Positions 7,917 to 60,555 of a stretch of DNA of 64,000 nucleotides are shown here, in pieces (position 1 is the stretch's first letter; every line of letters starts with the position of its first letter). The DNA is from Alphaproteobacteria bacterium. Lineage in GTDB: Bacteria; Pseudomonadota; Alphaproteobacteria; SP197. The position numbers and the translations under genes were made by a program. The notes below the pieces were generated by a model that saw nothing but the letters and a program-made list of their open reading frames with translations, was not told where the DNA came from and did not search any database. The stretch covers positions 53,928 to 117,927 of the forward strand of contig CBDAUZ010000002.1 in NCBI GenBank assembly GCA_965200745.1, written 5' to 3'.

Positions 7917-8006
7917 CTGGCGCCAATTTGCCTATTATAGTCGCCCTGCGTGATACGCCCCGATTCGTGGAATTGACAGATCAACCTGGAGATCTGGACG
8001 AATGAA

Positions 8007-12497: not shown

Positions 12498-13516
12498 CCG
12501 GTTCTCTCGAATTTTGGCATCACGTCGTTTGCAAAGCGCTCCATTGATGCCATGACATCGTGGTGCTCGGCCCCGAAACTCATGTTGACCAGCAGGTCCA
12601 TGACCTCAAGCTCTTCGTATTCAGCGAGTTTGTCGACAACGTCGGATGCGCTGCCGATCAGGAGTGCATTGCGAATATCGTGTTCCGACTCCGGAACATC
12701 GATTGGAACAATTTCACCATTGTTCACGATACCCGGTGTGTCGGACACGTTACGGAAGCGGCGATGGTTTTCGTAGGCAATCCGGACTTTTTCGTCAATG
12801 TCGGCCTGGTCGCGACCGACATAAAGCATACGCAGCATGGAAAACTTGAGGTGATCGAGTTTGCCATCGGCATCCCGCCGCGCATCACCGAATGCCCGCG
12901 CCTGTGTTCGAACTGTTTCCATCCCGCCACGCAAGGGTGTCGTCTGAATGTGATAGCCGCGCCGAGCGGAATGATAGATTGCAGGATAGCTCAGTGCGGC
13001 AATCCAGATCGGGATCGGATTCTGTATTGGATGGGGTGTGATCGAAATCGGCTCGAAGTCATACCAGGGGCTTTTCCACCCGGTTTCTTCACCCGAAACG
13101 AGTTTCTGCAGGAGTGCGAGCGCGTCATCAAAGCGTTCGCGGCTTTCCGCAGGCGGGACCCCGAACCGTTCGAATTCATACCTGAAAGCCCCGCGCCCGA
13201 CACCCAGTTCGAGACGGCCGTCCATGAGACAATCGGCCTGACAAACCTCTCCTGCAAGCCGCCTGATGTCGTAAAACGGCAGTACGAGGACCGATGTGAT
13301 GATGCGAATACGGCGTGTTCGGGCCGCAACCTTGATTGCGGTCAAGAGCGGCTGGGGATGAGTCAGATAGTTGATGAAATGATGTTCGGGAATGCAGAGG
13401 GTATCGAAACCCAGTTCTTCCGCGAATACGCCCTGTTCAACTGCGTCGGCGTAGAGTTGCTGCGCCGGATACGTCGTATCAGGCCAATAGCACGGCAGGT
13501 AGAAACTGAACCGCAA
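12494..13516 (-). CDS. LLM-class (luciferase-like) flavin-dependent oxidoreductase
   Basis: 340-aa ORF with CIPEHHF and LELGVGRG motifs. It has a 4-nt ATGA overlap with the dipeptidase gene. Confidence 0.9.
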   Translation of the reverse strand: MRFSFYLPCYWPDTTYPAQQLYADAVEQGVFAEELGFDTLCIPEHHFINYLTHPQPLLTAIKVAARTRRIRIITSVLVLPFYDIRRLAGEVCQADCLMDGRLELGVGRGAFRYEFERFGVPPAESRERFDDALALLQKLVSGEETGWKSPWYDFEPISITPHPIQNPIPIWIAALSYPAIYHSARRGYHIQTTPLRGGMETVRTQARAFGDARRDADGKLDHLKFSMLRMLYVGRDQADIDEKVRIAYENHRRFRNVSDTPGIVNNGEIVPIDVPESEHDIRNALLIGSASDVVDKLAEYEELEVMDLLVNMSFGAEHHDVMASMERFANDVMPKFERTG

Positions 13517-13612
13517 CCTGTCTTCTCCCGGTCAATGACACGACCCTGTTTCTTGAACACGCACCGTGCGCCTTGCTACCGTCCATGATCGTTTCACGAC
13601 AGGAACCAGACG

Positions 13613-15208
13613 ATGCCGCAAATCGACCCGCGTCACGAACAAAGTGTCGGCAAAATTCTTGCCGCACGGGCACGGGCGACGCCCGACAACATATTCATCC
13701 ATGCCGATGCCCGACACCTTACGTTCGGTGAAGCAGAGAGTGAATCCAACATCGTTGCCAATGCCACACGATCGCTTGGAATGGAACCGGGCGGAACCGT
13801 ACTTGTCATGTTGCCGAACGTCATCGAATTCATTCTGATATGGCTTGGACTGGGTAAATCCGGAGCGGTCCAGGTTCCTGTGAATACCGCGTATCGCGGC
13901 AATCTTCTCGTCCACGTCATCAACGATTCCGCTGCGTCGTTTCTCATCGTCGATTGCGAATTTCTTCAACGGATAGCCGAAGTTTCCGGTGAACTCGAAC
14001 ATCTCGAAACGCTGATTGTTCGCAACCTCCCCGAGGAACCGGGGCTGCTTCCAAACGGTCTCGAGTCGTTCCGGATCATCGATCTTTCGACCCTGTTCAA
14101 TGGACGTGATACCCCGCTTGCCGAACTGCCGAAACACTATGATCTCAAGGCCATCATGTACACATCCGGTACGACAGGCCCGTCGAAGGGTGTGATGACC
14201 GTTCAGGCACACGCCTATGCTTATGCACACGGCAACCTTGAACTCATGGAACTGAAACCAGGCGACATCTACTACGCACCGCTTCCGCTCTTTCACATCG
14301 CCGGTCAATGGGCGGTTTGCTACGCGTCCCTTATCGCCGGTTCCGCTGCAGTCGTGACCGAGCGATTCAGCGTTCAGCGTTTCTGGCAGGATGCACGGCG
14401 TTTCAATGCAAAGGTCACATTCCTTCTCGGTGCCATGGCAAACTTCCTGGCCCGACAGCCGCCACAGCCTGACGACAGTGTTACGCCAATCGAGCGTGCA
14501 CTTGTCGTTCCGATGTTTCCCGATGTCAGCGACTTCGGTCGTCGTTTCAACATGAAGATCAAGACAACCTACGGGTCGACCGAGACCTGTGCACCGCATC
14601 GGATCGGATGGGACGATCCGGACTGGCAAACCTGTGGCACCCTGCATGACGAACTTTTCGAAGGGCGCATTGTTGACGAGAACGATGAAGAAGTTCCCGA
14701 TGGCACTGTGGGTGAATTTGTCATTCGCGGCAAGGAACCCTGGGTTCTCATGGCCGGGTATTGGCGCCATCCCGAGTGGACCGAGAAAGCCTGGTCGAAT
14801 CTCTGGCTGCACTCGGGAGATGCGATGCGGCGTGACGCAAATGGCCGCTATTACTTTGTCGATCGTCTGACCGATTCCATTCGCCGACGCGGCGAGAACA
14901 TCTCGTCACTGGAAGTGGAGAACGAGATCAACCAGCATCCGGCTATCGTCGAGAGCGCTGTCTTTCCGATTTCCAGTGAAGATACCGAAGATGACGTCAT
15001 GGCAACCCTGGTTTGCAAGGAAGGATGCGCGGCCACCCCGGTCGAGATCATCGAATTCCTGGAGCCGAGAATGGCCAGATTCATGCTTCCCCGTTTCATC
15101 GACTTCATCGACGCGTTGCCGAAGACACCGACCGGCAAGATCAGGAAATTCAGTCTGCGGAAAAAGGGCGTTTCATCAACGACGTGGGATCGTGAAAATC
15201 CGTCCTGA
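13613..15208 (+). CDS. AMP-dependent acyl-CoA ligase (CaiC-like)
   Basis: 531-aa ORF with P-loop YTSGTTGPSKGV, YGSTET and the C-terminal TPTGKIRK. Confidence 0.9.
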   Translation: MPQIDPRHEQSVGKILAARARATPDNIFIHADARHLTFGEAESESNIVANATRSLGMEPGGTVLVMLPNVIEFILIWLGLGKSGAVQVPVNTAYRGNLLVHVINDSAASFLIVDCEFLQRIAEVSGELEHLETLIVRNLPEEPGLLPNGLESFRIIDLSTLFNGRDTPLAELPKHYDLKAIMYTSGTTGPSKGVMTVQAHAYAYAHGNLELMELKPGDIYYAPLPLFHIAGQWAVCYASLIAGSAAVVTERFSVQRFWQDARRFNAKVTFLLGAMANFLARQPPQPDDSVTPIERALVVPMFPDVSDFGRRFNMKIKTTYGSTETCAPHRIGWDDPDWQTCGTLHDELFEGRIVDENDEEVPDGTVGEFVIRGKEPWVLMAGYWRHPEWTEKAWSNLWLHSGDAMRRDANGRYYFVDRLTDSIRRRGENISSLEVENEINQHPAIVESAVFPISSEDTEDDVMATLVCKEGCAATPVEIIEFLEPRMARFMLPRFIDFIDALPKTPTGKIRKFSLRKKGVSSTTWDRENPS

Positions 15209-15963: not shown

Positions 15964-17358
15964 TCAATTCTCGAAAAGATCACCCAGAACGTAGTTCGGG
16001 TACGCTGCAAAGATTGTTTCGAATAATCCCTCGGCGACGTCCTTGGACATGCCGCCATTTTGGGCGTTGTCCAGAAACTTGCGCCTTAGATCGTCCTCAG
16101 ACAAAGGACGTTGAGGGCTGCCAATCGGATAGGCAACGCGATCGCAAAAAGAGCGTCCATCCTTCAGATGCACAGTCACGGTGTCAGGAAAATCCGGGTG
16201 AAACGCCAGACCGGGTGACCGCGGGTGTGCGTTGACTGAGACGCGCGCCGCGAGATCGATGAGTTCGGGGCGCAAGAGCGCATCGGGCTGGAAACTGGCC
16301 ACACCCACGCTACCGTCGGTCAGCGCAACCGCGGCGCACCACGGCACGCTGAACAGAGCCTCGGTTCGATCCTTCGGTATGCCATATGGCAGGACTGAGT
16401 GTGCGATATCGGAAACCACTGTCTTCACGCTGACAACATCTGACGCTTTTACCTGGTGCCGATTGCGCAAGGTCTGACAGGCTTCGATCACGAGGTGGGT
16501 TACCCCGCAAGAGGGGTAGTTCTTGATGTGCAGACCATACCTGAGCACGGCGTAAGACTGGCCAAGTTGTGCCAGACTAGCTCTCAGCTCATCAGGGCTT
16601 GCTCTGGTCATCATTTTCAGAAATCCCGCGTTGCCCTCAAAGACTGCTTTCTGCGCCGTGGCACCGTTGGCGGCAAACGAGGCCGATAGGACCCCGGTCT
16701 TCGCGGCCAGGCCAGCATGCAGCGGTTTCGCCGTTGTTCCAAATTGAGATGTGAAACCACCGATCATGCTGGTGGACAAAGATACGGCGTGGCTCGTCTG
16801 AGTGTCGTCCAGAGACATCAGCCGCGCACAGGCTGCCGCCGCTCCGATCGCGGCCAATGTGTTTGTCGTGTGCCAACCCAGTTCGTAATGCGTCATGTTC
16901 ACCGCTTCGCCAATGCGCATCAGGACTTCGACACCCACGATCCAGGCGTCCCAGATGGATGTAAGCGGAACCGCGTCGTCGGCGATGGCAAGGAGTGCGG
17001 GATAGATCGCCGCACTGGCATGGCTGATGCCTGGGTCTTCCCAATCGTCGAAGTCGTAGGCATGCGCCGACGTCCCGTTGACCAAGGCGGCCCAGGGTGC
17101 CGGCAATATCTCCGGTCGCCCATAATCTTGTCTGTCACCACTTCCCCAGCTTTGGACCGTCGCTAGAACGGCTTGGGTGTCGGGGTGGTCGGCTCCCAGA
17201 TACATGCACCCCAACGTGTCAGCGAATGCACGCTGCGCGTGCGCCCGGACCTCTTCGGGGTGGGTGTTGGGGCTATGAACCACAAATCGGGCGATAACCT
17301 CGGCGCATGTCACTGTGTTGTCGGCGAGGGTGCAGAGGTCAGATAGTGGTTCGTTCAT
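15964..17358 (-). CDS. MmgE/PrpD family protein (2-methylcitrate dehydratase-like)
   Basis: 464-aa ORF with ADTLGCMYLGADHP and HAYDFDD motifs. Its ATG overlaps the stop of the upstream ligase remnant (ATGA). Confidence 0.9.
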   Translation of the reverse strand: MNEPLSDLCTLADNTVTCAEVIARFVVHSPNTHPEEVRAHAQRAFADTLGCMYLGADHPDTQAVLATVQSWGSGDRQDYGRPEILPAPWAALVNGTSAHAYDFDDWEDPGISHASAAIYPALLAIADDAVPLTSIWDAWIVGVEVLMRIGEAVNMTHYELGWHTTNTLAAIGAAAACARLMSLDDTQTSHAVSLSTSMIGGFTSQFGTTAKPLHAGLAAKTGVLSASFAANGATAQKAVFEGNAGFLKMMTRASPDELRASLAQLGQSYAVLRYGLHIKNYPSCGVTHLVIEACQTLRNRHQVKASDVVSVKTVVSDIAHSVLPYGIPKDRTEALFSVPWCAAVALTDGSVGVASFQPDALLRPELIDLAARVSVNAHPRSPGLAFHPDFPDTVTVHLKDGRSFCDRVAYPIGSPQRPLSEDDLRRKFLDNAQNGGMSKDVAEGLFETIFAAYPNYVLGDLFEN

Positions 17359-18296: not shown

Positions 18297-19853
18297 ATGA
18301 CTGAAGCTGGAGAAAAACTGGGCCGATCAAGGCGCGGGGGCCGGGGTCGAACAAGAGGTTTGCGCGAAAGGGAAGCATCGACGAAAGAGATCTCGAAAGT
18401 GCGCCGCCTTCCTCCGGCAGAGTTCCTTACCGAACAGCAAATCAATCTGGTGCATGATTATTCCATGCGGGTTCTTGACGAAACCGGGATCGAATTCATG
18501 CTTCCGGAGGCGCTCGATTTACTCGAACAGAACGGTTGCAAGGTCGACCGAAGCTCGGGCCGTGCCTACATGCCGCGCACGGTGGTGGAGGATTGGGTTT
18601 CCAGGGCCCCGTCGAGCTTCGATCTGCAGGGAACGACACGCGAGAGCCGTATCATGATCGGGGGCAGCAATATCTCCTTCGGGTCGGTGGCAAGCGCTCC
18701 GAACACTTTCCATTCAAAGCGCGGGCGGGAGACCGGGTCACAACAAGGGTTTCGCGACCTGCTCAGGATCAGCCACGCTCTGCCGACCTGTACATTCATG
18801 TCAGGATACCCGGTTGAGCCAATCGACCTCCCCGTCAACACCCGGCATCTGGACTGTTACAAGGATATGCTGACGCTGACAGACAAGCCGTTCCGGGCTT
18901 ATGCGATCGGCAAGACACGTATTCGTGACGCTTTGGAGATGATACGGATCGCGCATCGCGTCGATGACGCCGGGATGGCAGCACCCCCGCGTCTGATCAC
19001 GAACATGAATGTCAATTCTCCACTCAAAATAGATGGCCCGCTGCTTGTCGGGGCCATGGAGATGGTGCGCGCCGGGCAGATTGTCGTTGTAACTCCCGTA
19101 GCGTTCTCGGGTGCCATGTCCCCGATTTCACTGTCAGGTACGCTTATTCAGTTCAACGCAGAATGCCTGGCCGGGATTGCGGCTCTGCAAATGGTCCAAC
19201 CCGGCGCGCCGGTTATGTATGGCTCTGTTTTGGCCACAATCGACATGAAAAGCGGTGCTCCCATTCTTGGTTCGCCAGAGCTCGTCACAGGATTTGTCGC
19301 GACAGGACAACTTGCCCGCCGATACGGCATTCCCATGCGCGGTTTTCTCGGTGCCACGTCAAAGGCCACCGATGCCCAGGCTGCCCATGAAACCCTCATG
19401 TGTCTTTGGGCAAATGTGCTGGCAGGCGTGCATTGTGTGTTCCACGCCCATGGATTGCTCGACGGCGGATTGATCGCCTCTTACGAAAAGGCGATCCTTG
19501 ATTCCGACCTCATCGGGATCATGCAGACGATCTCGTCAGACGTCGACTTCTCCGATGCAGACGAAGCCTTGGCTGCGATTGACGCCGTCGGCCCAGGCGG
19601 ACATTTTCTGGGCTCGTCGCATACAATGTCACGGTATCGAGATGCCTTTCACACACCAATCCTTTCAGACTGGCGGCCATTCGAAACCTGGAGCGAAGAT
19701 GGCGAACGAGAGACTGCAGCACGAGCCGAGGCTTACTACACGGACTTGCTGAAGAACTATGTCCCGCCGTCCATTGATCCGGGTGTTGCCGAAGAGCTGG
19801 AGACTTTCGTTGCCCGGCGCAAGGTTGAGATTGGTGGTCATGAAATAGATTAA
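18297..19853 (+). CDS. MttB-superfamily (trimethylamine methyltransferase family) protein, non-Pyl paralog 1
   Basis: ORF 18093..19853. I prefer the ATG at 18297 (MTEAGEKLG) after CAGGAGAG. Family-typical blocks are GAMSPISLSGTL, DMKSGAPILGSPE and GPGGHFLGSSHT. There is no in-frame amber codon. Confidence 0.9.
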   Translation: MTEAGEKLGRSRRGGRGRTRGLREREASTKEISKVRRLPPAEFLTEQQINLVHDYSMRVLDETGIEFMLPEALDLLEQNGCKVDRSSGRAYMPRTVVEDWVSRAPSSFDLQGTTRESRIMIGGSNISFGSVASAPNTFHSKRGRETGSQQGFRDLLRISHALPTCTFMSGYPVEPIDLPVNTRHLDCYKDMLTLTDKPFRAYAIGKTRIRDALEMIRIAHRVDDAGMAAPPRLITNMNVNSPLKIDGPLLVGAMEMVRAGQIVVVTPVAFSGAMSPISLSGTLIQFNAECLAGIAALQMVQPGAPVMYGSVLATIDMKSGAPILGSPELVTGFVATGQLARRYGIPMRGFLGATSKATDAQAAHETLMCLWANVLAGVHCVFHAHGLLDGGLIASYEKAILDSDLIGIMQTISSDVDFSDADEALAAIDAVGPGGHFLGSSHTMSRYRDAFHTPILSDWRPFETWSEDGERETAARAEAYYTDLLKNYVPPSIDPGVAEELETFVARRKVEIGGHEID

Positions 19854-19906
19854 GTCTATGGTGGAAAGGAATTCATGAACTTTTGGCTGCTTCCGGAAGA
19901 CCACGC

Positions 19907-21946
19907 ATGAGTGCTTACTCCGCTCTACGATCATCCTTGCAGCTTGGTCCGTTGACCCTGCGAAACCGGCTTGTGAGCACAGCACACGCCAACGGGTATG
20001 TAACCGGTGGAGTGCCTGGTGAACGATATCAACGCTACCACGAGGAACGCGCACGCGGCGGGTTGGCGCTCAGTGTTTTCGGGGGCTCGTCAAACGTGGC
20101 ACGGGATTCCGGAGCAATCTACGGACAGATTTACGTTGGTGATGACAAGGTCATCCCGCATTTCCAGAGCTTTGCCAAACGCATGCATGCCCATGGCTGC
20201 GCGCTGATCTGCCAGATCAGTCACATGGGCCGGCGCACGTCATGGAAGGGAGGCGACTGGATCGGCACGGTCGGCCCCTCTGCAGTTCGTGATCCAGGAC
20301 ATCACTCGATGCCCCGTGAGGCTCGACACGAGGATATTTCGAGAATTGTCAGGCACTTCGGAGATGCCGCAGTACGATGTCAAGAAGGGGGACTGGACGG
20401 GTGCGAGATCCTGGCGTCGGTCCATATCCTTGGCCAGTTCTTGTCGCCGCTCAGCAACTTCAGGGAGGATGAATACGGCGGTTCGTTGCAAAACCGTATG
20501 CGGTTTTTGACCGAAGTTCTTGCAGAAGTTCGCAGCCGTGTCGGTGCGGAGTTCGTGGTTGGGCTTCGCTACACAGCGGACGAGACGAATGAAGGCGGCC
20601 TTGGACCAGGGGAGGGTGTCGAGATTGCCAAAGCGATCGCGGCAACCGGGCTTGTTTCGTATCTCAGCCTCAACGGGGCGTATGGAGGCTCTGCAAAGGG
20701 AATGTCCGAAGCCTTTCCCGGCATGGGCACACCCTCGGCGCCCTATCTCGACATCGCTCGAAAGGTCCGAGAGGCGAGTGGGCTTCCGGTCATGCACGCT
20801 GCGCGCATCACCGATGCAGCAACCGCCGATTTTGCCATCACCAGCGGCGCGCTCGACATGGTGGGCATGGTACGGCCGCACATTGCCGACCCTCATATCA
20901 TGGCCAAGCTGAAGAAGGGACAAGAGCGCCGGATCCGGCCCTGTGTCGGAGCGGGTGCCTGCATTGATCGTGTTGATCTGGGTGGAGACATGATTTGTAC
21001 GCATAATGTCACCGCCGGTCGGGAGGGCCGTTTTCCCGATCACTACGCGCCATCGGATACGCCCCGAAAGGTTGTCATCGTGGGCGGAGGGCCTGCCGGG
21101 TTAGAGGCCGCGCGTGTGGCCCGATTGCGCGGACATGAGGTTGTGCTTCTCGAAGCATCCGACCGTTTGGGCGGACAGGTCTTGCTTGCGGCGAAAGCAC
21201 GTTCACGCCAGGACATGATCGGGATCACGGAGTGGTTGTCGTCGGAGCTTCACGAATTGGGGGTCGATAACCGTTACAACATTTACGCTGAGACAAGCGA
21301 CGTACTGAACCTCAAGCCGGACACCGTCATCATCGCAACCGGCGGTGTTCCGCAGCAACGGCTCGAAGATGGCGGGGAAGACCTCGCCATGACAAGCTGG
21401 GATGCTTTTCTGCTACCGGATGCGCCACGAGGGCGCTGCCTGGTTTACGACGAGAATGGCGGACATTGCGCGATTTCGTTGGTCGAAACACTGGCCGCGA
21501 AAGGGGTGGCGGTTGAGTTCATGACACCCTACCGGCGGGTCGGGAACGAGCTTGGCGGCCAAACCTACCCCCAATACCTCGAAGAGCTTTATCGCTTTGA
21601 TGTGACGTTGACACCAGATCACCGCCTCATCGGATTGCGCCGTTCGGGCAATTGCCTCACGGCTATTGTCAAGAACATGTTCACCAGACAAACAAAAGAG
21701 CTGGAGTTCGACAATGTCATCGTCGAACAGGGCACCGTTCCGATCAGCCAACTCTTCAACGACCTTGGGCCACTGTCGACAAACAGGGGGATCACTGACT
21801 GGGATGCTTTGGCCGACGGGCTGCCTCAGCCCGTTACCGCGGCATCGGACGGGGCTTTCAACCTTTTTGCAATCGGAGATGCAGTGTCCAGCCGGGACAT
21901 CCATTCAGCAATGTTCGATGCAAATCGGATTGCGCGCAACCTGTAA
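19907..21946 (+). CDS. OYE-like FMN plus FAD/NAD(P)-binding flavoprotein of the TMADH / 2,4-dienoyl-CoA reductase / N-methylproline demethylase (StcD) family
   Basis: ORF 19883..21946 with the ATG at 19907 after GGAAGA. It has an N-terminal TIM-barrel OYE region, a Cys-motif segment (CVGAGACIDRVDLGGDMICTHNVTAGRE) and the dinucleotide fold VVIVGGGPAGLEAA. Confidence 0.85.
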   Translation: MSAYSALRSSLQLGPLTLRNRLVSTAHANGYVTGGVPGERYQRYHEERARGGLALSVFGGSSNVARDSGAIYGQIYVGDDKVIPHFQSFAKRMHAHGCALICQISHMGRRTSWKGGDWIGTVGPSAVRDPGHHSMPREARHEDISRIVRHFGDAAVRCQEGGLDGCEILASVHILGQFLSPLSNFREDEYGGSLQNRMRFLTEVLAEVRSRVGAEFVVGLRYTADETNEGGLGPGEGVEIAKAIAATGLVSYLSLNGAYGGSAKGMSEAFPGMGTPSAPYLDIARKVREASGLPVMHAARITDAATADFAITSGALDMVGMVRPHIADPHIMAKLKKGQERRIRPCVGAGACIDRVDLGGDMICTHNVTAGREGRFPDHYAPSDTPRKVVIVGGGPAGLEAARVARLRGHEVVLLEASDRLGGQVLLAAKARSRQDMIGITEWLSSELHELGVDNRYNIYAETSDVLNLKPDTVIIATGGVPQQRLEDGGEDLAMTSWDAFLLPDAPRGRCLVYDENGGHCAISLVETLAAKGVAVEFMTPYRRVGNELGGQTYPQYLEELYRFDVTLTPDHRLIGLRRSGNCLTAIVKNMFTRQTKELEFDNVIVEQGTVPISQLFNDLGPLSTNRGITDWDALADGLPQPVTAASDGAFNLFAIGDAVSSRDIHSAMFDANRIARNL

Positions 21947-21967
21947 CGCTCAATTACGCGTGTCGGA

Positions 21968-22888
21968 TCACGCTTTTTCGATGTCCCAACGAAGTTCCTG
22001 GTGCATCGTTTCAACCACAGATTTGAGGACCGCAATAGCGTCACGTTGCATCCGTGTTGTTGCTTGCGACGCGGTGTTCAAGTACACACCGCGCCGGATT
22101 TCTGAATTGATGATCTTGCGTGAGACCAGCGTTCCGACGTCGGTATCACGTTTGATTGAGCAGTAAGGCAAGATTGTCGCGCCATCGCCTGCCCGGGCGG
22201 ATTGCAGCTGCGCTTCGACCGTGTTCACGTTGTGCCGCACTTGCAGTTTACAGTCATTCTCCTGAAAGCTTCGCTCGACCAAATCTCGAAAAACCGCCGG
22301 TTGCGACTGCATGAGCACGGGGGTCGTGCTTGCCTCCTGCATGGTGATCGGAACCGATGCGGGACCGACAACGTCAGGTGTTCCAGACATATACAGGCAT
22401 TCCGTGGCGATCAGTTCGCCAGCATCATCATCGAAGCGACGAGGCGTATAGTAAATGCCGATATCTGCTTTCTTCAGGCGAAGCTGCGTCTGGATATCCT
22501 CGCTCAGGGCCTCGAAGATTTCGGGGATCACTCGGATGTACTTTTGGGCAAGGGCCTCCACGAAAGGTCGCATCACAAAGGCGCTCAGCCGTGCTGGCAG
22601 CAGAATGCGCAAGGAAGCCACGCTATCGCCGCTCACATCGCGCACCTTCGCCAGGAATGCATCGTAGCTGTCGAGAACCTCTTGTGCGGCAACCCGAAGC
22701 ACCTCACCTTCTGCAGTCAGAACCATTCCGCGCCCGGTGCGCTGAAAAAGCTCGACAGCAAGTGTTGCTTCCATCTCGCGGATGACGCGGCTGAGTGCTG
22801 CCTGAGATGTATTGAGCCTGATGGTTGCTCGGCTGACGGATTGCTCTTCGGCAACCGTGACGAAGTATTGCAACCAACGAATCTTCAT
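21968..22888 (-). CDS. LysR-family transcriptional regulator
   Basis: ORF 21968..22918 with the HTH MKIRWLQYFVTVAEEQSVSRATIRLNTSQAALSRVIREME. The probable start is codon 11. Confidence 0.9.
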   Translation of the reverse strand: MKIRWLQYFVTVAEEQSVSRATIRLNTSQAALSRVIREMEATLAVELFQRTGRGMVLTAEGEVLRVAAQEVLDSYDAFLAKVRDVSGDSVASLRILLPARLSAFVMRPFVEALAQKYIRVIPEIFEALSEDIQTQLRLKKADIGIYYTPRRFDDDAGELIATECLYMSGTPDVVGPASVPITMQEASTTPVLMQSQPAVFRDLVERSFQENDCKLQVRHNVNTVEAQLQSARAGDGATILPYCSIKRDTDVGTLVSRKIINSEIRRGVYLNTASQATTRMQRDAIAVLKSVVETMHQELRWDIEKA

Positions 22889-23002
22889 TCTTTTCTGTCC
22901 ACCGACCCGACACCGCACCCCTGCTCCCTACCCCGGATGCGCCCACAGCCGTTTTCTAGCATCAATCGAAGGCGCGCAAAAATTAAGTTTCCTGTTTCTC
23001 GA

Positions 23003-23019
23003 AAAGCATCGGATGCTTT
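23003..23019. promoter_or_regulatory. Palindrome AAAGCATC-G-GATGCTTT in the LysR/MDR-reductase divergent intergenic; candidate LysR box
   Basis: Perfect 8-bp inverted arms read directly from the sequence. The position between divergent genes fits an operator, but the function is untested. Confidence 0.25.
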
Positions 23020-23198
23020 GCTTACCGTGGATCGGCGCGATGGGCGCAGGCGTTCCAGAGACAGCTTGGCCCATCTCGTTTCAAAGTATCAGGTGCTAAA
23101 AAACCGACTTCTCAACCCATCCCGCGTTGCCACATTGTCAGAAAACAACATGATGACTTAAGAGCATGCGCTGCTCACAGAAAACCGGGGAGCCGTGA

Positions 23199-24206
23199 AT
23201 GTCGATGATCCAGCTTGTCCTCGCAAGAAGGCCGGGCATGACGCTGAATACGGGTGATACCGAGTTGGTGGAACGGGACGTTCCGGAACCCGGCGATGGT
23301 CAATTTCGCATCAAGCTGAGCCATATTGCGCTTGAGGTGTCGATGATTGGATGGATGCGGGAAGGCCGGTCCTATCTGCCCAATATCGCAATCGGTGATC
23401 CGATCAGGGCCACGGGTGTTGGCATTGTCGAGGGCAGCTTGCACCCCGGATACAAGGCGGGTGATCTGGTGACCGGACTGTTTGACGCTAGCACACATAC
23501 GATCAGCGACGGCAAGGTTGCGGTCAAACTTGATGCAACCGCGGTGTCGCCTGAGGCCTGGGCTGGTGCCCTTGGGTTAACGACAGCATTCACGAGCTTC
23601 GTCGGAATGAGCTTTGGGCAGCAAGACCTGAGCGGAAATACGGTGCTGGTCACGGGCACGTCCGGTCTGGTCGGTGGGTATGCTGCTCAGCTTGCCAAGC
23701 AACGGGGTGCGCGTGTCATTGGAACTGCCGGTTCAGAAGAGGCCTGCCGCGACGTGGAACGGAAGTATCGGGTCGACCATTGCCTGAACTATAACAACGA
23801 GCGCGATATCGAGAGTACGTTGTCGGAGCTGTGCCCAGATCGCATCGATATGTTTTACGACAATGTCGGCGGCACGATTTTTGACGCAGCCCTCGGCCGA
23901 ATGAACGCTTTCGGGAGCATTGTCATGTGTGGCCAGACATCCGAACGTGGTCTCGCCTCACCTCCACCCGTCACGAACATTCGGACAATGATCATGGAGC
24001 GCCTGACGATGCGCGGGTTCGTTGTTTTTGACCACCCCAACCTTTTCGCAGACGCTGCGCAATGGATTTCCGAAGGCGTGTCTTCCGGTGCGTTGGTGAA
24101 GCCACATGAGGACATTAGTCACCCAGGTGGTCTGGCAGAATTCCACGACGCCTACTCGGCTCTGGTAGGGGACGCTCGAAAGGGTAAACACGTTCTGTGC
24201 CTTTAG
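23199..24206 (+). CDS. NADP-dependent MDR-superfamily oxidoreductase (YncB/CurA-type enone/alkenal reductase-like)
   Basis: 335-aa ORF with the Rossmann motif VLVTGTSGLVGGYAAQLAKQRGARVIGTAGS and no zinc-ligand pattern. Confidence 0.85.
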   Translation: MSMIQLVLARRPGMTLNTGDTELVERDVPEPGDGQFRIKLSHIALEVSMIGWMREGRSYLPNIAIGDPIRATGVGIVEGSLHPGYKAGDLVTGLFDASTHTISDGKVAVKLDATAVSPEAWAGALGLTTAFTSFVGMSFGQQDLSGNTVLVTGTSGLVGGYAAQLAKQRGARVIGTAGSEEACRDVERKYRVDHCLNYNNERDIESTLSELCPDRIDMFYDNVGGTIFDAALGRMNAFGSIVMCGQTSERGLASPPPVTNIRTMIMERLTMRGFVVFDHPNLFADAAQWISEGVSSGALVKPHEDISHPGGLAEFHDAYSALVGDARKGKHVLCL

Positions 24207-24349
24207 GTGGCAAGGGATTCGTTTTCCAGGCTATTGAGAACGAACGACTAATCGGGATCTGAACTGGCAATCGATTGGCGCATTTCTTCTTCTAGCCAGC
24301 TTTCAAATGCCAATGCGATAGTCTTTGTTGGTCGTTTTTCTGGCTTCAG

Positions 24350-24380
24350 CCCAAGTTGTCAGTTGTAGTGACAACTTGGG
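24350..24380. promoter_or_regulatory. Perfect 12-bp inverted repeat CCCAAGTTGTCA-N7-TGACAACTTGGG about 45 nt upstream of MttB paralog 2
   Basis: Read directly from the sequence. It could be an operator, or an RNA hairpin (terminator or attenuator) after the MDR gene. No clear T-run follows. Confidence 0.3.
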
Positions 24381-24422
24381 TTATCATTCGGGAATGAGGT
24401 CTCATACGGATGTGGTAGCGCA

Positions 24423-26006
24423 ATGAGCCATTCTTCGGCGCACAGGACCCGCAGGGGTGGTCGTCGTGCATCGCGTCGCGGAGCGGCAGAGGCTGGCGAC
24501 ATGGACGGCGCATGGCAAGGCGCATGGGGTGCGCCGAAAGGGGGCGTTGATCGTCCATTCAAGAACCGTCTACCCGCTTACGACATCCTCAGCGCAGACG
24601 AGCTTGAAGCGGTTCATCTTGCATCGGTTAAAATCCTGCAAGAGATCGGAATTCGCGTCCGAGGCGATCCGCATGCGCTGGAACTGTGGAAAGCGGCAGG
24701 TGCGGAGGTCAGGGGCGATATCGTTCGCATCCCACAGGACTTGATTGAACGGCTTCTGTCACTGGCACCGGAAGAGTTCACTCAACACGCAAGAAACCCC
24801 GCACGCAGCGTGACCTTTGGTGCTGACAATGTCGTCTTTTCACCAATCTTTGCCTCGCCGTTCGTGCGGGACCTGGAAAACAAGCGACGCCAAGCGACGT
24901 TGTCGGACCTGCACAACCTGCTCAAGCTGACGCAAATGTCGTCCTGCCTGAACTATGGGGGCGCGCAAATCTGTGAACCCATGGACGTGCCCGGACCCAA
25001 GCGCCATTTGGAAATGGTGCGCGGTCACCTGACGTACTCGGAAAAGCCCTTTATGGGAGATGCGCGTGCGGATTGGCGCGCAAAGGATTCCTTCGAGATG
25101 TGCGGGATCGTCTTCGGCAAGGAATTTGCCCGAAAAAATGTCGTTCTTTTGGGGTTGGTCACGGCGTCCTCTCCTCGTTTGTGGGACGCGGACATGCTCA
25201 AGACCCTCAGGTACTACGCCGAGATGGGCCAATCGTTGTTGATAACGCCCTTCATCATGCAAGGTGCCAACACGCCGGTGACAATCGCCGGCGCACTGGC
25301 ACAGGCGAATGCCGAGGCGATGTTCGGCATGACCTACGCCCAGTTGGTGCGGCCGGGCACACCGGTGATTTACGGGTGTTCTCTGGCCACCGTTTCAATG
25401 AAGAGCGGAGCCCCGCTTTATGGCACAAGCGAGATCGCACGCTTAACGTTGGCTATGGGGCAATTGGCCAGACGCTACAAGGTTCCCTACCGCATTGGCG
25501 GGGTGCGGAACGGAAGCATGGAGTCTGACGTCAGCACCGGCGCTCAGAACGCCGTGACAATGATGCCGGCCCTTTTGGCAAAGGCAAATTTCATACTCCA
25601 TTCAGTTGGCTGGCTCGAAAACTCCATGTCGGTGAGTTTTGCCCAGTTTATCATGGATCTCGATCAGCTCGCGCTGCTGCAGGAATTTGTGAAAGGCATC
25701 GACATCAACGAGGAAACTCTCGCGCTTGAGGCCATCGCGTGCGCCCAGCCAGCTGGGGATTATTTTTCCAATCCGCATACGATCAAACACTACCGGTCCA
25801 CGTTTATCGAACCCATGATGCCCGCGTGGGGGACGTTTGATGCCTTTGAGGCTGCCGGTTCGCCAAGCATGATATCTTCCGCCTTGGGCTGGGCAAAACG
25901 CGCCTTGGATGCATACGAACCGCCTCCGTTGGATGTGGACGCAAAGGAGGAACTCGATGCCTTTGTGGAGAAACGAATGGCTGAACTACCGGATATCGAA
26001 ACGTAA
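24423..26006 (+). CDS. MttB-superfamily protein, non-Pyl paralog 2
   Basis: 527-aa ORF with the blocks GANTPVTIAGAL and SMKSGAPLYGTSE and an Arg-rich N-terminus (HRTRRGGRRASRRG). There is no in-frame amber codon. Confidence 0.9.
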   Translation: MSHSSAHRTRRGGRRASRRGAAEAGDMDGAWQGAWGAPKGGVDRPFKNRLPAYDILSADELEAVHLASVKILQEIGIRVRGDPHALELWKAAGAEVRGDIVRIPQDLIERLLSLAPEEFTQHARNPARSVTFGADNVVFSPIFASPFVRDLENKRRQATLSDLHNLLKLTQMSSCLNYGGAQICEPMDVPGPKRHLEMVRGHLTYSEKPFMGDARADWRAKDSFEMCGIVFGKEFARKNVVLLGLVTASSPRLWDADMLKTLRYYAEMGQSLLITPFIMQGANTPVTIAGALAQANAEAMFGMTYAQLVRPGTPVIYGCSLATVSMKSGAPLYGTSEIARLTLAMGQLARRYKVPYRIGGVRNGSMESDVSTGAQNAVTMMPALLAKANFILHSVGWLENSMSVSFAQFIMDLDQLALLQEFVKGIDINEETLALEAIACAQPAGDYFSNPHTIKHYRSTFIEPMMPAWGTFDAFEAAGSPSMISSALGWAKRALDAYEPPPLDVDAKEELDAFVEKRMAELPDIET

Positions 26007-26356
26007 GCGACGCACGAACTCCGGTTACGGTTCGCCAGTCGTTCCCCCTGAAGCGCGGGCGGCAACGACGTCGATCTCAATCTAAAGCGCAGGGTCGAAC
26101 AATTCGACGATCACGCCGGTCACAGCCGCGCTCATGTGTTCTCCCAAGGCCTCAATTCGGGCTGCCTTGCTAAGACCCAGATTGTCCCGATCCGTCAGGG
26201 GCATCTTGAGGCGAACCAGATCCTGTGGCCCGCGGCGTCAATCCCCTCAAGAAAAGCTTTGACGTTGCGCCATGCCTGCAGGAACCTCAACCGCGTTGTA
26301 ATAAAGGCCGTGCGCGGGATAAAGTGTATCGGGGTCGAATTTACTGCTCGCTCTTC

Positions 26357-26992
26357 TCATGTCGTCGCTCCCTTACGGTCTTTGTCCCACTCGATGGAGG
26401 CGCGATCCCCGTCATCAATCCAACTTGCAACGGCCAGCATCGGGGCATCACCCGTTCGCATTTCATGCATCTGCCAGCTGTCGTGAAAAATCAAATCCCC
26501 GGCCTCGACCTCGAACCAATCGCCATTGTCCAGCCGCCACTGCGTGCCGGGTGTCAGCAGCAGGTAGATTTCGCGCGCATCGTGGTTGTGCCCAGGGTAA
26601 AGCAGATTGGGCGCCATGAGCATGATACCTGTGCGCGGTGCCGCCCAGACGAGTGCGGTGTCAGTGCCAGACAGCCCAGCATAGGCATAGCCATTCAGAA
26701 ACGCCTGCGAGCAATTGCTTTCATTGTAGCTGGAATTTTGTGACCACCTGAAATGCGATGCGGCGTCGGCCACGGCCTCGGCCAATCCGGACAATTTGTG
26801 CTTTCTGGCTAGATCCAAAGCGGACGCCAGATGTTCCAACACGGGAAAAGCGTCGCCGAAACGGGCCTCGTTTGGCCGAGGTTCCGTTTCGACGATCTGG
26901 GGCATCGGGACATGACGCCCGACGGTTACATCCCTGGTGGCCGCGATCTCTTGCCATATACGCCTGACCAGCGGTTCCATATCGATCGTCAT
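26357..26992 (-). CDS. Cupin-fold protein, DddL-like (DMSP-lyase family PF16867-like), paralog A
   Basis: ORF 26357..27058. The cupin metal motif is YPGHNHDAREIYLLL...FHDSWQMHEMRTGDAPML. I prefer the start at codon 23 (MTIDMEP), which gives a 4-nt ATGA overlap with the upstream paralog. The family call is from memory of DddL motifs. Confidence 0.6.
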   Translation of the reverse strand: MTIDMEPLVRRIWQEIAATRDVTVGRHVPMPQIVETEPRPNEARFGDAFPVLEHLASALDLARKHKLSGLAEAVADAASHFRWSQNSSYNESNCSQAFLNGYAYAGLSGTDTALVWAAPRTGIMLMAPNLLYPGHNHDAREIYLLLTPGTQWRLDNGDWFEVEAGDLIFHDSWQMHEMRTGDAPMLAVASWIDDGDRASIEWDKDRKGATT

Positions 26993-27651
26993 GTCCTGAC
27001 CTCCTCGTTCTGCTGTGCTCCTGAGAACCGGGACTTCACTGGCGTTTGCTCGTCCCACACAAGGCCGATCAGCAGGGGCTGGCCCTGATCCATGCGCACA
27101 CCGTGCGGCTGCCAGGGAGGGTTATGAATGACACTGCCGGGCAGCTTGGTTTGCCATTCCGCATCGCCAATCTTCCACGAAGCAGTGCCGGACAGGACCA
27201 CATAAAACTCCTCGGCAGAGTGCGCATGAACAGGATATTCGACATCCGGGCCCAGCAACAGGACGCCGGCCAGCAAGTGATCGCTCTTTATCGGGGCGTC
27301 CGAACTGATGAAAAGCGTCCAACCGTATCGCTCCAGGAAGACCTGGCTCACATCGTCCTCGGAATAGGTTTGTCGCCACCGAAGACTGCCACTGATCCCA
27401 ACCAGTCGGCGTACAAATTCGGCCGTCGCTTCTGGCGCCTGTTCTGCTACCTCTGCCAGCCAGTCGGTGACGGGCAGGTCATGCGCTTCGCACAAGTCTA
27501 TGATTGTGTCCGGAGGCGGCCATTTGTCCAGAATACGCCCGATATCAGCATGATCCACGCCGCGAAAGATATCGTGCAACGCATCGGCTGCGGCCGCTAT
27601 GCCGTCCTCAGCGTTCTCCCTCCGCTGCCAGTCTGTCTGTTCCTGCGCCAC
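26989..27651 (-). CDS. Cupin-fold protein, DddL-like, paralog B
   Basis: 220-aa ORF (GTG start) with YPVHAHSAEEFYVVLSG...HNPPWQPHGVRMDQGQPLL. Confidence 0.6.
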   Translation of the reverse strand: MAQEQTDWQRRENAEDGIAAAADALHDIFRGVDHADIGRILDKWPPPDTIIDLCEAHDLPVTDWLAEVAEQAPEATAEFVRRLVGISGSLRWRQTYSEDDVSQVFLERYGWTLFISSDAPIKSDHLLAGVLLLGPDVEYPVHAHSAEEFYVVLSGTASWKIGDAEWQTKLPGSVIHNPPWQPHGVRMDQGQPLLIGLVWDEQTPVKSRFSGAQQNEEVRT

Positions 27652-27750
27652 GCGCTACAGGCCTCCAACATCAATCCCCGGAACCGTAAACAAGCGCTAT
27701 CCAGTCGGGTCTTTTCCCGCAAAGTTATTCTGATCAGATGCCTCCCTCAA

Positions 27751-29271
27751 CTAGGCCGCTGCGATGTTGGCCTTGCGTATTTCGATATATGACATCAACT
27801 CTTCCTCAACGCCGGGATCGAGTGAAGGTTGCTCATATTCCTGCAAGAGCTGCTTCCAGAAAGCATGTGCCCTTTGCACAGTATCCCTTGAACCCTCTTC
27901 CACCCATTTCTCAAGATTGCTCCAGTCCGACAGCATCGGTTGATAAAACGCATCCTTGTATCGTTCGAGGGTCTGTGGCGCGGCAAAAAAATGGCCGCCA
28001 GGACCCACCTCTTCGATGTCCTGAACACCAAGGTTTTCCGACTTGAACGACAGCGGTTTCATCGCCTCGTTCACCATCTGTAGCATCTCCGAGTCGATGA
28101 TCATTTTCTCGTATGAGAACGTCAGCCCCGACTCCATCCAGCCATGCGCAAAATTGAGCAAACTCACCCCCCCAAGGACGGCCCCCCAGATCGACATCTG
28201 CGACTCGTAGATCGCCTGCGCGTCGATGACATTGGAGGAGTTGACGTTTCCCGACCTCAGCGGCAAGCCATATCGCCGCGCCAGTTGCCCCGCGACGATG
28301 ATCCCCTTCATGTATTCGGGTGTACCGAATGATGGCGATCCTGACTTCATATGAACGCTGGTGGCGAGCGAGCCATAGACGACCGCTGCACCCGCTCTGA
28401 CGATCTGCGATAACGTGATGCCTGCCAGTATCTCGGCATTCTGTTGCACCAGACTGCCTTCAACGGTGATTGGCCCGGTCGCCCCCGCCATGGCGAGGGA
28501 GGCAATGACACAGGCCTGCCCCATGCTCGCCATCCGAATGAGGGCGTCTGTCATGGGCTGATCAATTTTCATCGGGCTGTTGATGCTGATATTGGTGATG
28601 AGCCCAGGGTCCTTCACCAGCTGTTCCGTGCTGATACCGCGGGCAATCGCGGCCATCTGCAGGCCGTCTTCGATCGAGTCTGGCGCGACAGCTGTGGGCC
28701 TCCAGACTTTATCGGTAAGGCACAATATCGACGCATAGGCGTCGAGATGACGGGAGCTGGGCGGTAAATCCTGCGGTTCGACCGGGTAACCGTAAATGCA
28801 ATGCACGGTATTCAGGCACTGACACAGCTTTATCAAGTCATTGAAATCAGAGTAGGTCCCGCTCCGGCGTCCCCTGTCCAGATCGGAGCAATAGGGCGGA
28901 ACCGTTGCCGGGGTGAACACCATGTGTATATCGTCAAAGACAAGATTGTGCGCCGGGTTGCGTGCATAAAGGGTAAAACTTTTCGGCGCCAACTTGATCT
29001 TGTCTTCGACAAGCGCAGGGTCTAGCCGCACGCGGCAGTTGGCTTCATCCACATCTGCACCAGTCGCCTTAAATCGTTTCCGCGCGTCGTCGCTTACGAC
29101 TTCAAGCCCAACATCCCGTAACAGCCTTAAAGAAGCCTGATGGAGCGCTTCAATCTCGTCCTCGCTGACGATAGAAATCGGGCCGAACCGGTTAACTGGC
29201 TGAGACCAGGGTTTCTGCGAGATTCTCGCAACGGCAGTCTCCCGACGATTGCGTTTTGTTCGTCTGGACAT
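27751..29271 (-). CDS. MttB-superfamily protein, non-Pyl paralog 3
   Basis: ORF 27751..29340. I prefer the ATG at 29271 (MSRRTKRNRRE) after GGGAGG. Blocks are GATGPITVEGSL, HMKSGSPSFGTPE and GPGGHFFAAPQT. Confidence 0.9.
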   Translation of the reverse strand: MSRRTKRNRRETAVARISQKPWSQPVNRFGPISIVSEDEIEALHQASLRLLRDVGLEVVSDDARKRFKATGADVDEANCRVRLDPALVEDKIKLAPKSFTLYARNPAHNLVFDDIHMVFTPATVPPYCSDLDRGRRSGTYSDFNDLIKLCQCLNTVHCIYGYPVEPQDLPPSSRHLDAYASILCLTDKVWRPTAVAPDSIEDGLQMAAIARGISTEQLVKDPGLITNISINSPMKIDQPMTDALIRMASMGQACVIASLAMAGATGPITVEGSLVQQNAEILAGITLSQIVRAGAAVVYGSLATSVHMKSGSPSFGTPEYMKGIIVAGQLARRYGLPLRSGNVNSSNVIDAQAIYESQMSIWGAVLGGVSLLNFAHGWMESGLTFSYEKMIIDSEMLQMVNEAMKPLSFKSENLGVQDIEEVGPGGHFFAAPQTLERYKDAFYQPMLSDWSNLEKWVEEGSRDTVQRAHAFWKQLLQEYEQPSLDPGVEEELMSYIEIRKANIAAA

Positions 29272-59867: not shown

Positions 59868-60542
59868 TTACCGGTTCAATTCCAGGTACGACTGCCAGAG
59901 ATCGACATGAACGCGGTCGTGTGGCGTCGCGCGCGAGCCCCACAGTTCACACGCGGCGAATTCGACGGTGTAGCAATGCTGCGGGCACTCACCTTCCCTG
60001 CGTGCATTCGTGTCGGGAAAGACGAACACGCCGTGATCCCGCTGGATTACACCGGTTCGTCCGCGACAGTAGCGTGGCACCCGTGTGTGAAATGGTGGGT
60101 GTTCGTTGCGTACCCTGACAGAATCACCGACCGAAAATGCCCGCGTGATCTCGGGCGTGTCACGGCGTGTGCTGTATCCCCCGGCAACGGACTCTTCCAT
60201 TTCGTCGAGCGTGATTCCGCTGCCGCCGGGTGCGCGTACCGGCGAATCAATCTGCTGCATGCGCGCCTGGATCTCGTCGTGCGTGAGAACATTGCGTTTC
60301 GTGACAATCGCCTCAACCGAGCGGGTCCACAGTTCATAATACGTAGAATTCAGATATGTCGCCGGCGGAATTCGCTCGATGTTCGTCCGGAGATCGTCGT
60401 CCGAGAATTTCACACCCTCCGCGACCTGCAGGGCGAGACCGAATGCCCTCCTTTCCCACGCACTGTGAAACACGGGCTCATCCGGCTGACGGTTGATTGC
60501 ACCAAACCCGTGCATGCCGCCGAGATCATGGATTCCGTTCAT
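59868..60542 (-). CDS. nthB: Nitrile hydratase beta subunit
   Basis: 224 aa starting MNGIHDLGGMHGFG, with AWERRAFGL. Confidence 0.9.
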   Translation of the reverse strand: MNGIHDLGGMHGFGAINRQPDEPVFHSAWERRAFGLALQVAEGVKFSDDDLRTNIERIPPATYLNSTYYELWTRSVEAIVTKRNVLTHDEIQARMQQIDSPVRAPGGSGITLDEMEESVAGGYSTRRDTPEITRAFSVGDSVRVRNEHPPFHTRVPRYCRGRTGVIQRDHGVFVFPDTNARREGECPQHCYTVEFAACELWGSRATPHDRVHVDLWQSYLELNR

Positions 60543-60555
60543 GGGATCCTCCGTT

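Follow-up and report, generated by a model that had tools for sequence, protein, structure and literature searches.

Three divergent non-pyrrolysine MttB paralogs in an alphaproteobacterial chromosome: a candidate cluster for the demethylation of related acidic betaines

Non-pyrrolysine members of the MttB superfamily are now recognised as a major B12-dependent demethylation route for nitrogen osmolytes in the oxic ocean, and glycine betaine is the only substrate for which an aerobic pathway has been demonstrated so far. On which compounds, and together with which partners, would three different members of the family act when they are packed within 11 kb of one chromosome? This question is raised by a stretch of 64,000 nucleotides from an Alphaproteobacteria bacterium (contig CBDAUZ010000002.1 of assembly GCA_965200745.1, positions 53,928 to 117,927), called here the window. 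The reading that we favour, with moderate confidence, is that the locus would serve the B12-dependent demethylation of related acidic betaines, with a corrinoid protein supplied in trans, followed by further demethylation by flavoproteins. Most open reading frames (ORFs) of the window with at least 200 aa, and some shorter ones, were scanned with Pfam and NCBIfam profiles, and orthologues were taken from species-representative genomes and metagenome contigs, whose loci are labelled L001 and so on. The three genes are:

18297-19853, plus strand: MttB1, PF06253 (6e-163)
24423-26006, plus strand: MttB2, PF06253 (2e-173)
27751-29271, minus strand: MttB3, 506 aa, PF06253 (5e-174)

An initial annotation of the DNA had described three MttB-family ORFs without amber codons, and this description was borne out. 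The proteins scored 543, 577 and 579 bits on PF06253 (gathering score, 25 bits), with around 480-500 of the 500 profile positions covered, and the genes are free of internal stops and of in-frame UAG codons. In the alignment, the column of the pyrrolysine of Methanosarcina barkeri MttB is occupied by G, R and V in MttB1-3, and the scores on the trimethylamine methyltransferase equivalog model TIGR02369 were of 281-340 bits (291 for MttB1) versus a cut-off of 525. As judged from their sequences, the three proteins are non-pyrrolysine members of the superfamily and not MttB sensu stricto. Amino-acid identities between pairs are 29%, 38% and 35%, and no DNA similarity was detectable among the three genes, in such a way that they are diverged paralogs, as annotated, and not recent duplicates. 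The chance of finding three copies within 11 kb was roughly estimated as 5e-4, for seven copies (the highest count reported for one genome) placed at random in around 5 Mb, which argues that their clustering is not due to chance. Regarding the gene starts, the MttB1 ORF extends upstream to a TTG at 18093, with homology beginning near the ATG at 18297, a close relative of MttB2 is called from a Met at 24501, and MttB3 has the same length as its 91% identical orthologue P0037. Arg-rich N-terminal extensions were seen in all three proteins (RSRRGGRGRTRG, RTRRGGRRASRRG and SRRTKRNRRE; encoded at 18297-18400, 24423-24500 and 29200-29271), outside the region that aligns to solved structures.

A neighbour-joining tree, as called for by the initial annotation, placed each of MttB1-3 in a clade of its own, together with orthologues from other genomes. 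The references in this tree were limited to MtgB of Desulfitobacterium hafniense, 4YYC of Sinorhizobium meliloti and M. barkeri MttB, with sequences rebuilt from PDB alignments. The MttB2 clade is sister to that of 4YYC, and the best PDB match of MttB3 was D. hafniense MtgB (9yce/2qne, 3e-101).

The substrate pocket of MtgB has been defined by mutagenesis and a ligand-bound structure, in which Y97 and F356 bind glycine betaine through cation-pi interactions and R312 and H348 bind its carboxylate (Picking et al. 2026, PMC13080624). Every member characterised so far carries this Arg, which in MtgB is essential (PMC13080624). We compared these four positions by alignment. They read A-R-H-G in MttB1, F-R-H-S in MttB2 and T-R-F-G in MttB3, where the His348 equivalent is a Phe, and each of these patterns is conserved inside its orthogroup. 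The active sites are thus distinct, and the full glycine-betaine motif (aromatic-Arg-His-aromatic, Y/F-R-H-F/Y) was found in none of the three proteins when aligned with MtgB. The Arg312 equivalent is kept in MttB1-3 and in every orthologue above 45% identity, being absent in three distant homologues below 45%. The conservation of this Arg in the three proteins predicts acidic quaternary amines as their substrates.

The initial annotation had put forward the classic small osmolytes as substrates (glycine betaine, proline betaine, carnitine, gamma-butyrobetaine, choline and dimethylsulfoniopropionate (DMSP)), each with its own MttB. Such an island we consider unlikely. In its favour, these compounds are substrates of characterised non-pyrrolysine members, Arg312 is present in the three paralogs, and MttB2 agrees with the glycine-betaine motif at three of its four positions and, in the tree, is a neighbour of the 4YYC clade; against it stands the lack of the full motif in all three pockets. 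The surroundings of the MttB genes bear on the same point, and they comprise the following features:

15964-17358, minus strand: MmgE/PrpD-family protein, PF03972 and PF19305
17355-18199, minus strand: remnant (pseudogene) of an AMP-dependent ligase, fragments of PF00501/PF13193
19883-21946, plus strand: flavoprotein, old yellow enzyme (OYE)/Fe-S/FAD type, PF00724 and PF07992
21968-22918, minus strand: LysR regulator, divergent from the reductase-MttB2 genes, PF00126 and PF03466
23199-24206, plus strand: CurA/PTGR1-like medium-chain dehydrogenase/reductase (MDR), PF16884 and PF00107
26034-26342, minus strand: remnant of RidA (Ribonuc_L-PSP), found by tblastn with the RidA of L113
26357-26992, minus strand: Cup1, DddQ-family cupin, 211 aa, PF16867 (3e-34)
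26989-27651, minus strand: Cup2, DddQ-family cupin, PF16867 (2e-29) and PF07883
29527-29835, minus strand: EamA remnant, matching residues 1-103 of the EamA of L113
30294-34032, plus strand: OppB, OppC and a fused OppD/F, two PF00528, two PF00005 and oligo_HPY
34132-35760, minus strand: solute-binding protein SBP5, PF00496 (8e-60)
36077-37039, plus strand: GcvA-like LysR regulator, divergent from the SBP5 gene, NF008352 (223.8 bits) and TIGR03418 (195.6 bits), both under cut-off

TIGR03418, on which the second regulator falls below the cut-off, is the model for the choline-sulfate regulator. All the neighbours named in the initial annotation (flavoprotein, LysR, MDR, two cupins and Opp importer) were recovered in the profile scans, and the conservation of gene neighbourhood that it had proposed to look for was found, with own conserved neighbours for each MttB orthogroup. 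Orthologues of MttB1 (65-83% identical) occur in L092-L097 and L107, which include an Aliishimia metagenome-assembled genome (MAG) and MAGs from Hyphomicrobiales and Rhodospirillales. In these loci recurs a first module, made of MttB1, the flavoprotein, the PrpD-like protein (41-63% identical and adjoining MttB1 in all of them), a LysR regulator (64% identical and at the same position in L092), the MDR (64% in L092, 36-38% in L093-L097) and SBP5, joined in L092 and L107 by an intact AMP-ligase of 561 aa. Orthologues of MttB2 (60-95%) were found in L001-L007, L011 and L113, and a second module of MttB2, SBP5 and LysR recurs in L002-L007 and L011 (orthologues 60-79%). The MttB3 orthogroup is rare, with seven 90%-identity clusters at 78% identity or higher in 5.8 billion sequences, the next match being from Shimia gijangensis (57%). 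A DAO-family gene adjoins the MttB3 orthologues in L113, L115 and the Shimia locus L114; a sequence search of the PDB gave no solved relative of the L113 DAO protein at 1e-10. L113, whose DNA shares 88-91% identity with that of the window, has the intact order SBP5, OppDFCB, EamA, a small ORF, DAO, MttB3, Cup2, Cup1, RidA and MttB2, L115 carries DAO, MttB3 and a cupin, and L114 carries a LysR, the MttB3-like gene, DAO, SBP5 and OppBCDF. Separate clades with their own neighbourhoods and pockets fit different substrates and a modular build, so the part of the initial annotation that proposed modules with one MttB per substrate is plausible. The work on Ruegeria pomeroyi had already noted up to seven PF06253 paralogs per genome and proposed one substrate for each (PMC12478193).

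Some data also hint that MttB modules move horizontally. In the Aliishimia (Rhodobacterales) MAG L092, MttB1 and the flavoprotein are 83% and 77% identical to the copies of the window. The ParC protein of the window (61168-63396, minus strand) is at most 61% identical to that of any species-representative genome, in a pattern-based search that may have missed closer ones, and this difference is a hint of transfer of the MttB1 module. The window itself is chromosomal, with ParC and RecO genes, its GC content is flat, and a tRNA scan of the window found no tRNA flanking the cluster, so with no flanking cobalamin riboswitch either, there is no classic signature of a genomic island.

The importer connects the modules. 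Its orthologues (58-97% identical) adjoin MttB3-like, MttB1-like and cupin genes in L113, L115, L114 and L107: in Shimia they lie beside the MttB3-like gene and DAO, and in L107 beside MttB1-like, PrpD-like, AMP-ligase and Cup1 genes. An orthologue of SBP5 is found next to an MttB2-like gene in L011 (72%), and another one in Shimia L114 (62%). Since orthologues of this one importer lie beside all three MttB types, their three substrates are probably related chemically, and not an assortment, and they probably exceed glycine betaine in size or acidity. The importer is of the Opp/Dpp/AgaA-like type and not ProU/OpuA/BCCT-like, and the best PDB match of SBP5 was AgaA (6hlx, 3.5e-23), a binding protein for the opine agropinic acid. 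Neither a ProU/OpuA/BCCT transporter nor betA/betB, cdh or Rieske stc genes were found in the cluster by profile scans. The type of importer, these absences, the low abundance of the MttB3 orthogroup, odd for a common osmolyte, and the closest relative of the PrpD-like protein (see below) all speak against the classic osmolytes, which probably are not the substrates of MttB1-3.

The flavoprotein gene lies 29 bp downstream of MttB1 and is probably co-transcribed with it. Its best solved relatives are FadH (3e-64), 2-naphthoyl-CoA reductase and trimethylamine dehydrogenase (TMADH, 8e-48). The resemblance to TMADH pointed out in the initial annotation did not extend to the diagnostic residues: Cys30, the 6-S-cysteinyl FMN site, is replaced by Ala36, Trp355 of the aromatic bowl by Val364, and the four-Cys Fe/S motif by CxxAxxC. 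An identity as FadH (2,4-dienoyl-CoA reductase) was rejected too, despite the best PDB match, with His181 in place of Tyr166 and Ala in place of the second Cys of the Fe/S motif. This motif reads C354-x2-A357-x2-C360-x11-C372 (C354-VG-A357-GA-C360), and CxxAxxC was present in the flavoproteins of the five MttB1-orthologue loci examined (L092, L093, L095-L097) and in homologues from Rhizobium etli and Paracoccus. CxxAxxC defines the "cluster 2" of 2-enoate reductases, whose sole tested member demethylates N-methylproline (PMC11759058), and the protein of the window has both features of this cluster, Ala at the second Cys and His181 for the catalytic Tyr. The best-supported role for it would be that of a tertiary-amine (N-methyl) demethylase acting after MttB1. 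A StcD-like flavoprotein would also fit the conversion of proline betaine to N-methylproline and then to proline, a point on the side of the classic osmolytes.

A homologue of the flavoprotein in plasmid p42f of R. etli CFN42 (L102, 448496-469098) is accompanied by a ProVWX-type transporter, a gene like pyrroline-5-carboxylate reductase and EtfBA, with two interleaved PF16867 cupins and genes for glutathione-dependent formaldehyde detoxification, in what looks like a cluster for N-demethylation with production of formaldehyde. R. etli is a soil rhizobium, and DMSP is not expected to be common in such a habitat. The pSymA locus of S. meliloti (L104) lacks the cluster found in R. etli p42f, and orthology to stcD was not established there.

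With respect to the enzymes that might act on the carbon skeleton, the MDR scored 198.6 bits on the curcumin reductase model NF058644 (cut-off, 440) and is of the C=C reductase type. The best solved relative of the PrpD-like protein was iminodisuccinate epimerase (2hp0/2hp3, 2e-49), followed by entries for IRG1 and cis-aconitate decarboxylase, and the PDB matches at E<=1e-10 included no entry for 2-methylcitrate dehydratase (PrpD).

Between MttB2 and MttB3 lie the two cupins, with scores of 118.5 (Cup1) and 103.1 bits (Cup2) on PF16867 (cut-off, 27 bits). The best PDB matches were DddQ (4la2/5jso, 5e-15) for Cup1, whose start was set by the 211-aa relative P0001, and 4b29/5jso (around 1e-13) for Cup2. 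The active-site set of the Cupin-DLL superfamily consists of the H, H, E and Y of motif 1 and the H and W of motif 2 (bioRxiv 10.1101/161257), and all six residues are kept in both proteins (HNHDAREIY...H...W in Cup1, HAHSAEEFY...H...W in Cup2). The cupins are 22% identical to each other and 26-33% to the solved DddQs, the Cup2 stop overlaps the Cup1 start by 4 bp, and Cup2 and Cup1 form the same tandem in L113, L110 and L001. Orthologues of Cup1 were found with RidA, enoyl-CoA hydratase and class III CoA-transferase in L110, with RidA, enoyl-CoA hydratase and a gene like dimethylglycine dehydrogenase (DMGDH) in L108, with a DMGDH-like gene in L112, with PrpD-like, Opp, AMP-ligase and MttB1-like genes in L107, and with MttB3 and MttB2 in L113 and L001. 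In Leisingera (L105), a distant homologue of Cup1/Cup2 (24-26%) is accompanied by CoA ligase and beta-oxidation enzymes. An ATPase gene of the DUF4143/AAA_14 type was seen beside the cupin cluster of L110 (13093-14256), next to integrase/transposase fragments, and another of the same type lies in the window just past the end of the cluster (37740-38912, minus strand).

The Pfam name of PF16867, "DMSP lyase", counts in favour of the classic osmolytes, and it would also allow a more specific possibility: a sulfonium locus in which the cupins are true lyases producing dimethyl sulfide (DMS) and acrylate, one or more MttBs demethylate DMSP or a related sulfonium compound, and acrylate is detoxified and assimilated by way of propionyl-CoA with the help of the reductase, the AMP-ligase and the PrpD-like protein. 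For this reading speak the scores of both cupins and their six conserved residues, the presence of a C=C reductase and a PrpD-family protein, and the relatives of Cup1 that lie beside a CoA-transferase and an enoyl-CoA hydratase resembling AcuN/AcuK (L110, L108) or beside CoA ligase and beta-oxidation genes (L105). However, the kcat/KM of DddQ on DMSP has been cited as below 1 M-1 s-1, and this activity judged promiscuous (Lei et al., bioRxiv 10.1101/161257), and the cupins of the window are distant from the solved DddQs. Their recurrent partners belong to nitrogen chemistry (RidA, DAO, DMGDH-like, StcD-like), the reductase is CurA-like and not YhdH/AcuI-like, and the PrpD-like protein is nearer to iminodisuccinate epimerase, IRG1 and cis-aconitate decarboxylase than to PrpD. 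Furthermore, the use of a sulfonium compound is not known from any MttB member. We regard a DMSP locus as improbable.

The native role of DddQ has been argued to be betaine catabolism, from neighbours that resemble hydroxyproline-betaine epimerase and dimethylglycine dehydrogenase (bioRxiv 10.1101/161257), and the contexts of the cupins found here agree with it. A tentative possibility is that Cup2-Cup1, RidA, DAO, MttB3/MttB2 and the Opp-type importer form an undescribed acidic-betaine pathway in which the native reaction of the Cupin-DLL proteins takes place. Plausibly, the betaine would undergo a C-N (or C-S) elimination after its demethylation, in free form or as a CoA ester, and the product, an enamine or an unsaturated acid, would then be handled by RidA and the reductases. 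That cupins and MttBs share one pathway is a lead and not a result, and no association between DddQ and MttB was found in the literature searched. Cup2-like ORFs at 8-9 kb from an MttB gene, seen in many Mesorhizobium loci, were rejected as a further link: the pocket of the MttBs there reads A-R-H-G, they do not belong to the MttB3 orthologues, and the genes in between encode an acyl-CoA dehydrogenase, a protein like 3-hydroxyisobutyrate dehydrogenase, an aminotransferase, a prolyl oligopeptidase and a major facilitator superfamily transporter. If the pathway exists, the largest "DMSP lyase" family would gain a physiological role and a connection with B12-dependent demethylation. The locus adds evidence for N-methyl amine catabolism over DMSP cleavage in this family. 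DddQ is used as a marker of DMS production in ocean surveys, and a confirmation would change the reading of dddQ counts in metagenomes.

The copy of the cluster in the window has suffered several losses. The AMP-ligase has lost around 260 internal amino acids compared with L092 and L107, in such a way that tblastn covers only residues 6-80 and 340-560, and what its two ORF fragments retain of PF00501/PF13193 is limited to the N-terminal end and the C-terminal part. The RidA remnant shows 61% identity with gaps to the RidA of L113 by tblastn, with around 77 bp missing, a frameshift and stops in all frames, whereas the cupins of L113, L110 and L108 are followed by a RidA without such damage. Finally, around 2 kb are deleted with respect to L113 (bases 6809-8794 of which have no counterpart in the window), with loss of most of EamA, the small ORF and the DAO-family FAD oxidoreductase. 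The large deletions cannot be sequencing errors, but the small frameshifts might be errors of the assembly. An intact second AMP-dependent ligase (13613-15208), which is only around 30% identical to the lost one, might substitute for it; it lies upstream of the cluster, in a segment (11490-15208) with an M19 dipeptidase and a luciferase-like monooxygenase.

These three independent deletions could mean that the locus is a decaying relic, with intact MttBs in pathways that are dead and with nothing required for growth on methylated compounds, and the split of a gene for a tripartite ATP-independent periplasmic (TRAP) transporter elsewhere in the window goes in the same direction. Against this, the core genes (MttBs, cupins, flavoprotein, reductase, the two regulators and the complete importer) have kept their full length and are 87-97% identical to those of L113, paralogs such as the second AMP-ligase could supply lost functions, and the small frameshifts may be artefacts. 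We give little credence to a dead locus: with an intact core the function may persist, even if this copy is not a pristine pathway. The TRAP gene, DctP, appears as three short ORFs (58496-59565, minus strand), followed downstream by DctQ-like (57520-58437) and DctM (55163-57520) genes, and may be another pseudogene or the result of assembly frameshifts.

Putting these data together, the region at around 16-37 kb may be read as three catabolic modules, separable but clustered on the chromosome of an uncultured marine alphaproteobacterium, that act on quaternary ammonium compounds with a carboxylate (betaine type). Besides the substrate class and the accessory roles, we infer a dependence on corrinoid and the direction of methyl flow. 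The substrate would enter through the Opp/Dpp-type ATP-binding cassette (ABC) importer, and in each MttB the conserved Arg would bind its acid group, by homology with MtgB, MtpB, MtcB and MtyB. The enzyme would then present one N-methyl group to the Co(I) of a corrinoid protein and release a tertiary amine. Later N-demethylation would depend on flavoproteins, the CxxAxxC OYE/Fe-S enzyme of the MttB1 operon and the DAO-type oxidase that accompanies MttB3 and is deleted here. The carbon skeleton would be handled by the cupin pair (together with RidA where relatives have kept it intact), by the PrpD-like protein and by the CurA-like reductase, as well as by the now broken AMP-ligase. A corrinoid protein, a methyl-corrinoid:tetrahydrofolate methyltransferase and a reductive activase would be encoded elsewhere, shared and acting in trans; no corrinoid partner gene was found in the Pfam-annotated neighbourhoods of the relatives' loci either.

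Several observations weigh against this interpretation. The scanned ORFs of the 64 kb include none for a corrinoid-binding, pterin-binding or RamA-type protein, Rfam detected no cobalamin riboswitch in the window, and the partner in trans is an assumption. The orthogroups of MttB1-3 contain no characterised member, and their substrates are predicted at the level of a class. With the AMP-ligase, RidA and DAO deleted or broken, the system may be partly inactive in this bacterium. The co-occurrence of cupins and MttBs is restricted to a shallow set of relatives, the cupins of L110, L108 and L112 having no MttB within 10 kb, and the neighbourhoods of each orthogroup were sampled from at most a dozen loci.

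A role in anabolism was also considered, in which the MttBs would load a shared corrinoid with betaine methyl groups for methionine synthesis (the MtgC/MtgE route) and not for carbon or nitrogen catabolism. A SAM-II riboswitch elsewhere in the window could be taken in its support, but it lies 15 kb away and not upstream of the MttB genes, and the clustering of demethylases with skeleton-processing enzymes and a dedicated importer argues for full catabolism, which makes the anabolic role very improbable.

Other features of the window deserve mention. The SAM-II riboswitch (SAM_alpha, RF00521; 44148-44222, plus strand; 39.3 bits versus a gathering score of 36) sits around 370-480 nt upstream of an ORF for delta-aminolevulinate dehydratase (hemB-like, 44593-45705), an unusual placement, with no methionine or S-adenosylmethionine gene directly 3' of it. 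Its presence marks the host as a member of the Alphaproteobacteria. At 50608-52710 (plus strand), around 21 kb from the cluster, a fusion of 700 aa joins a DUF1989 and a GcvT-type folate-binding aminomethyltransferase domain, and could be another tetrahydrofolate-linked demethylase. Genes for the beta and alpha subunits of nitrile hydratase (59868-61167, minus strand) adjoin parC.

How does this cluster compare with known systems? In the literature searched, we found no description of the three orthogroups with their pocket signatures, of the Opp-type importer that they share, of the MttB1-CxxAxxC operon or of a cupin pair between two MttB genes, and the three orthogroups, with distinct pockets and partner sets, are a starting point in the search for new marine betaine substrates. 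The initial annotation regarded the role of these enzymes in aerobic proteobacteria as poorly defined, a view outdated by the work on Ruegeria pomeroyi, in which genetics showed that aerobic use of glycine betaine requires both the corrinoid protein MtgC and the pterin-binding MtgD (Mausz et al. 2025, PMC12478193). Two PF06253 proteins (MtgB) increase in R. pomeroyi on N-osmolytes, and the genes of the system are dispersed there, with that for MtgB lying apart from those for MtgC and MtgD (PMC12478193). The window resembles the MtgBCD(E) system of strain DSS-3 in having PF06253 enzymes in a marine alphaproteobacterium, with several paralogs (PMC12478193), and differs in that no full glycine-betaine pocket is found in MttB1-3. 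The partners are also different: the Opp-type importer, CxxAxxC flavoprotein, DAO, cupins and PrpD-like protein in the window, and OpuD, DMGDH and sarcosine-demethylating enzymes in R. pomeroyi.

With the anaerobe enzymes, MtgB from D. hafniense and MtpB/MtcB/MtyB/MthB from Eubacterium limosum, the MttBs of the window share the superfamily, the TIM-barrel length, Arg312 and the absence of pyrrolysine. Their identity to D. hafniense MtgB is of 37-39%, with its Y97/F356 pair changed to A/G, F/S and T/G in MttB1-3. The anaerobe systems use one paralog per substrate and one shared corrinoid protein. In D. hafniense, the gene next to mtgB (DSY3156), DSY3155, likely encodes the cognate corrinoid protein, in contrast to the scanned ORFs of the window, among which no corrinoid gene was found. 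Unlike these anaerobes, the host of the window presumably lives aerobically. Among solved structures, MttB2 is closest to 4YYC, annotated as a putative trimethylamine methyltransferase of S. meliloti, with 40% identity, a sister clade and the pocket Y-R-H-G, which differs from that of MttB2 at two of the four positions.

Cup1 and Cup2 are like the DddQ/Cupin-DLL proteins in their PF16867 domain, the six active-site residues and the company of N-methyl-amine genes, and unlike the solved DddQs, to which their identity is low, in forming a divergent tandem pair between two MttB genes. With the cluster 2 enzymes, such as OYEBi of Burkholderia insecticola (PMC11759058), and with S. meliloti StcD, the flavoprotein shares the OYE, Fe/S and FAD architecture, the change of the second Cys to Ala, the replacement of the catalytic Tyr, and neighbours of the LysR and dipeptide-type ABC kinds. 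In the window, this flavoprotein is found in a probable MttB operon, whereas the known system has a Rieske stachydrine demethylase as partner instead.

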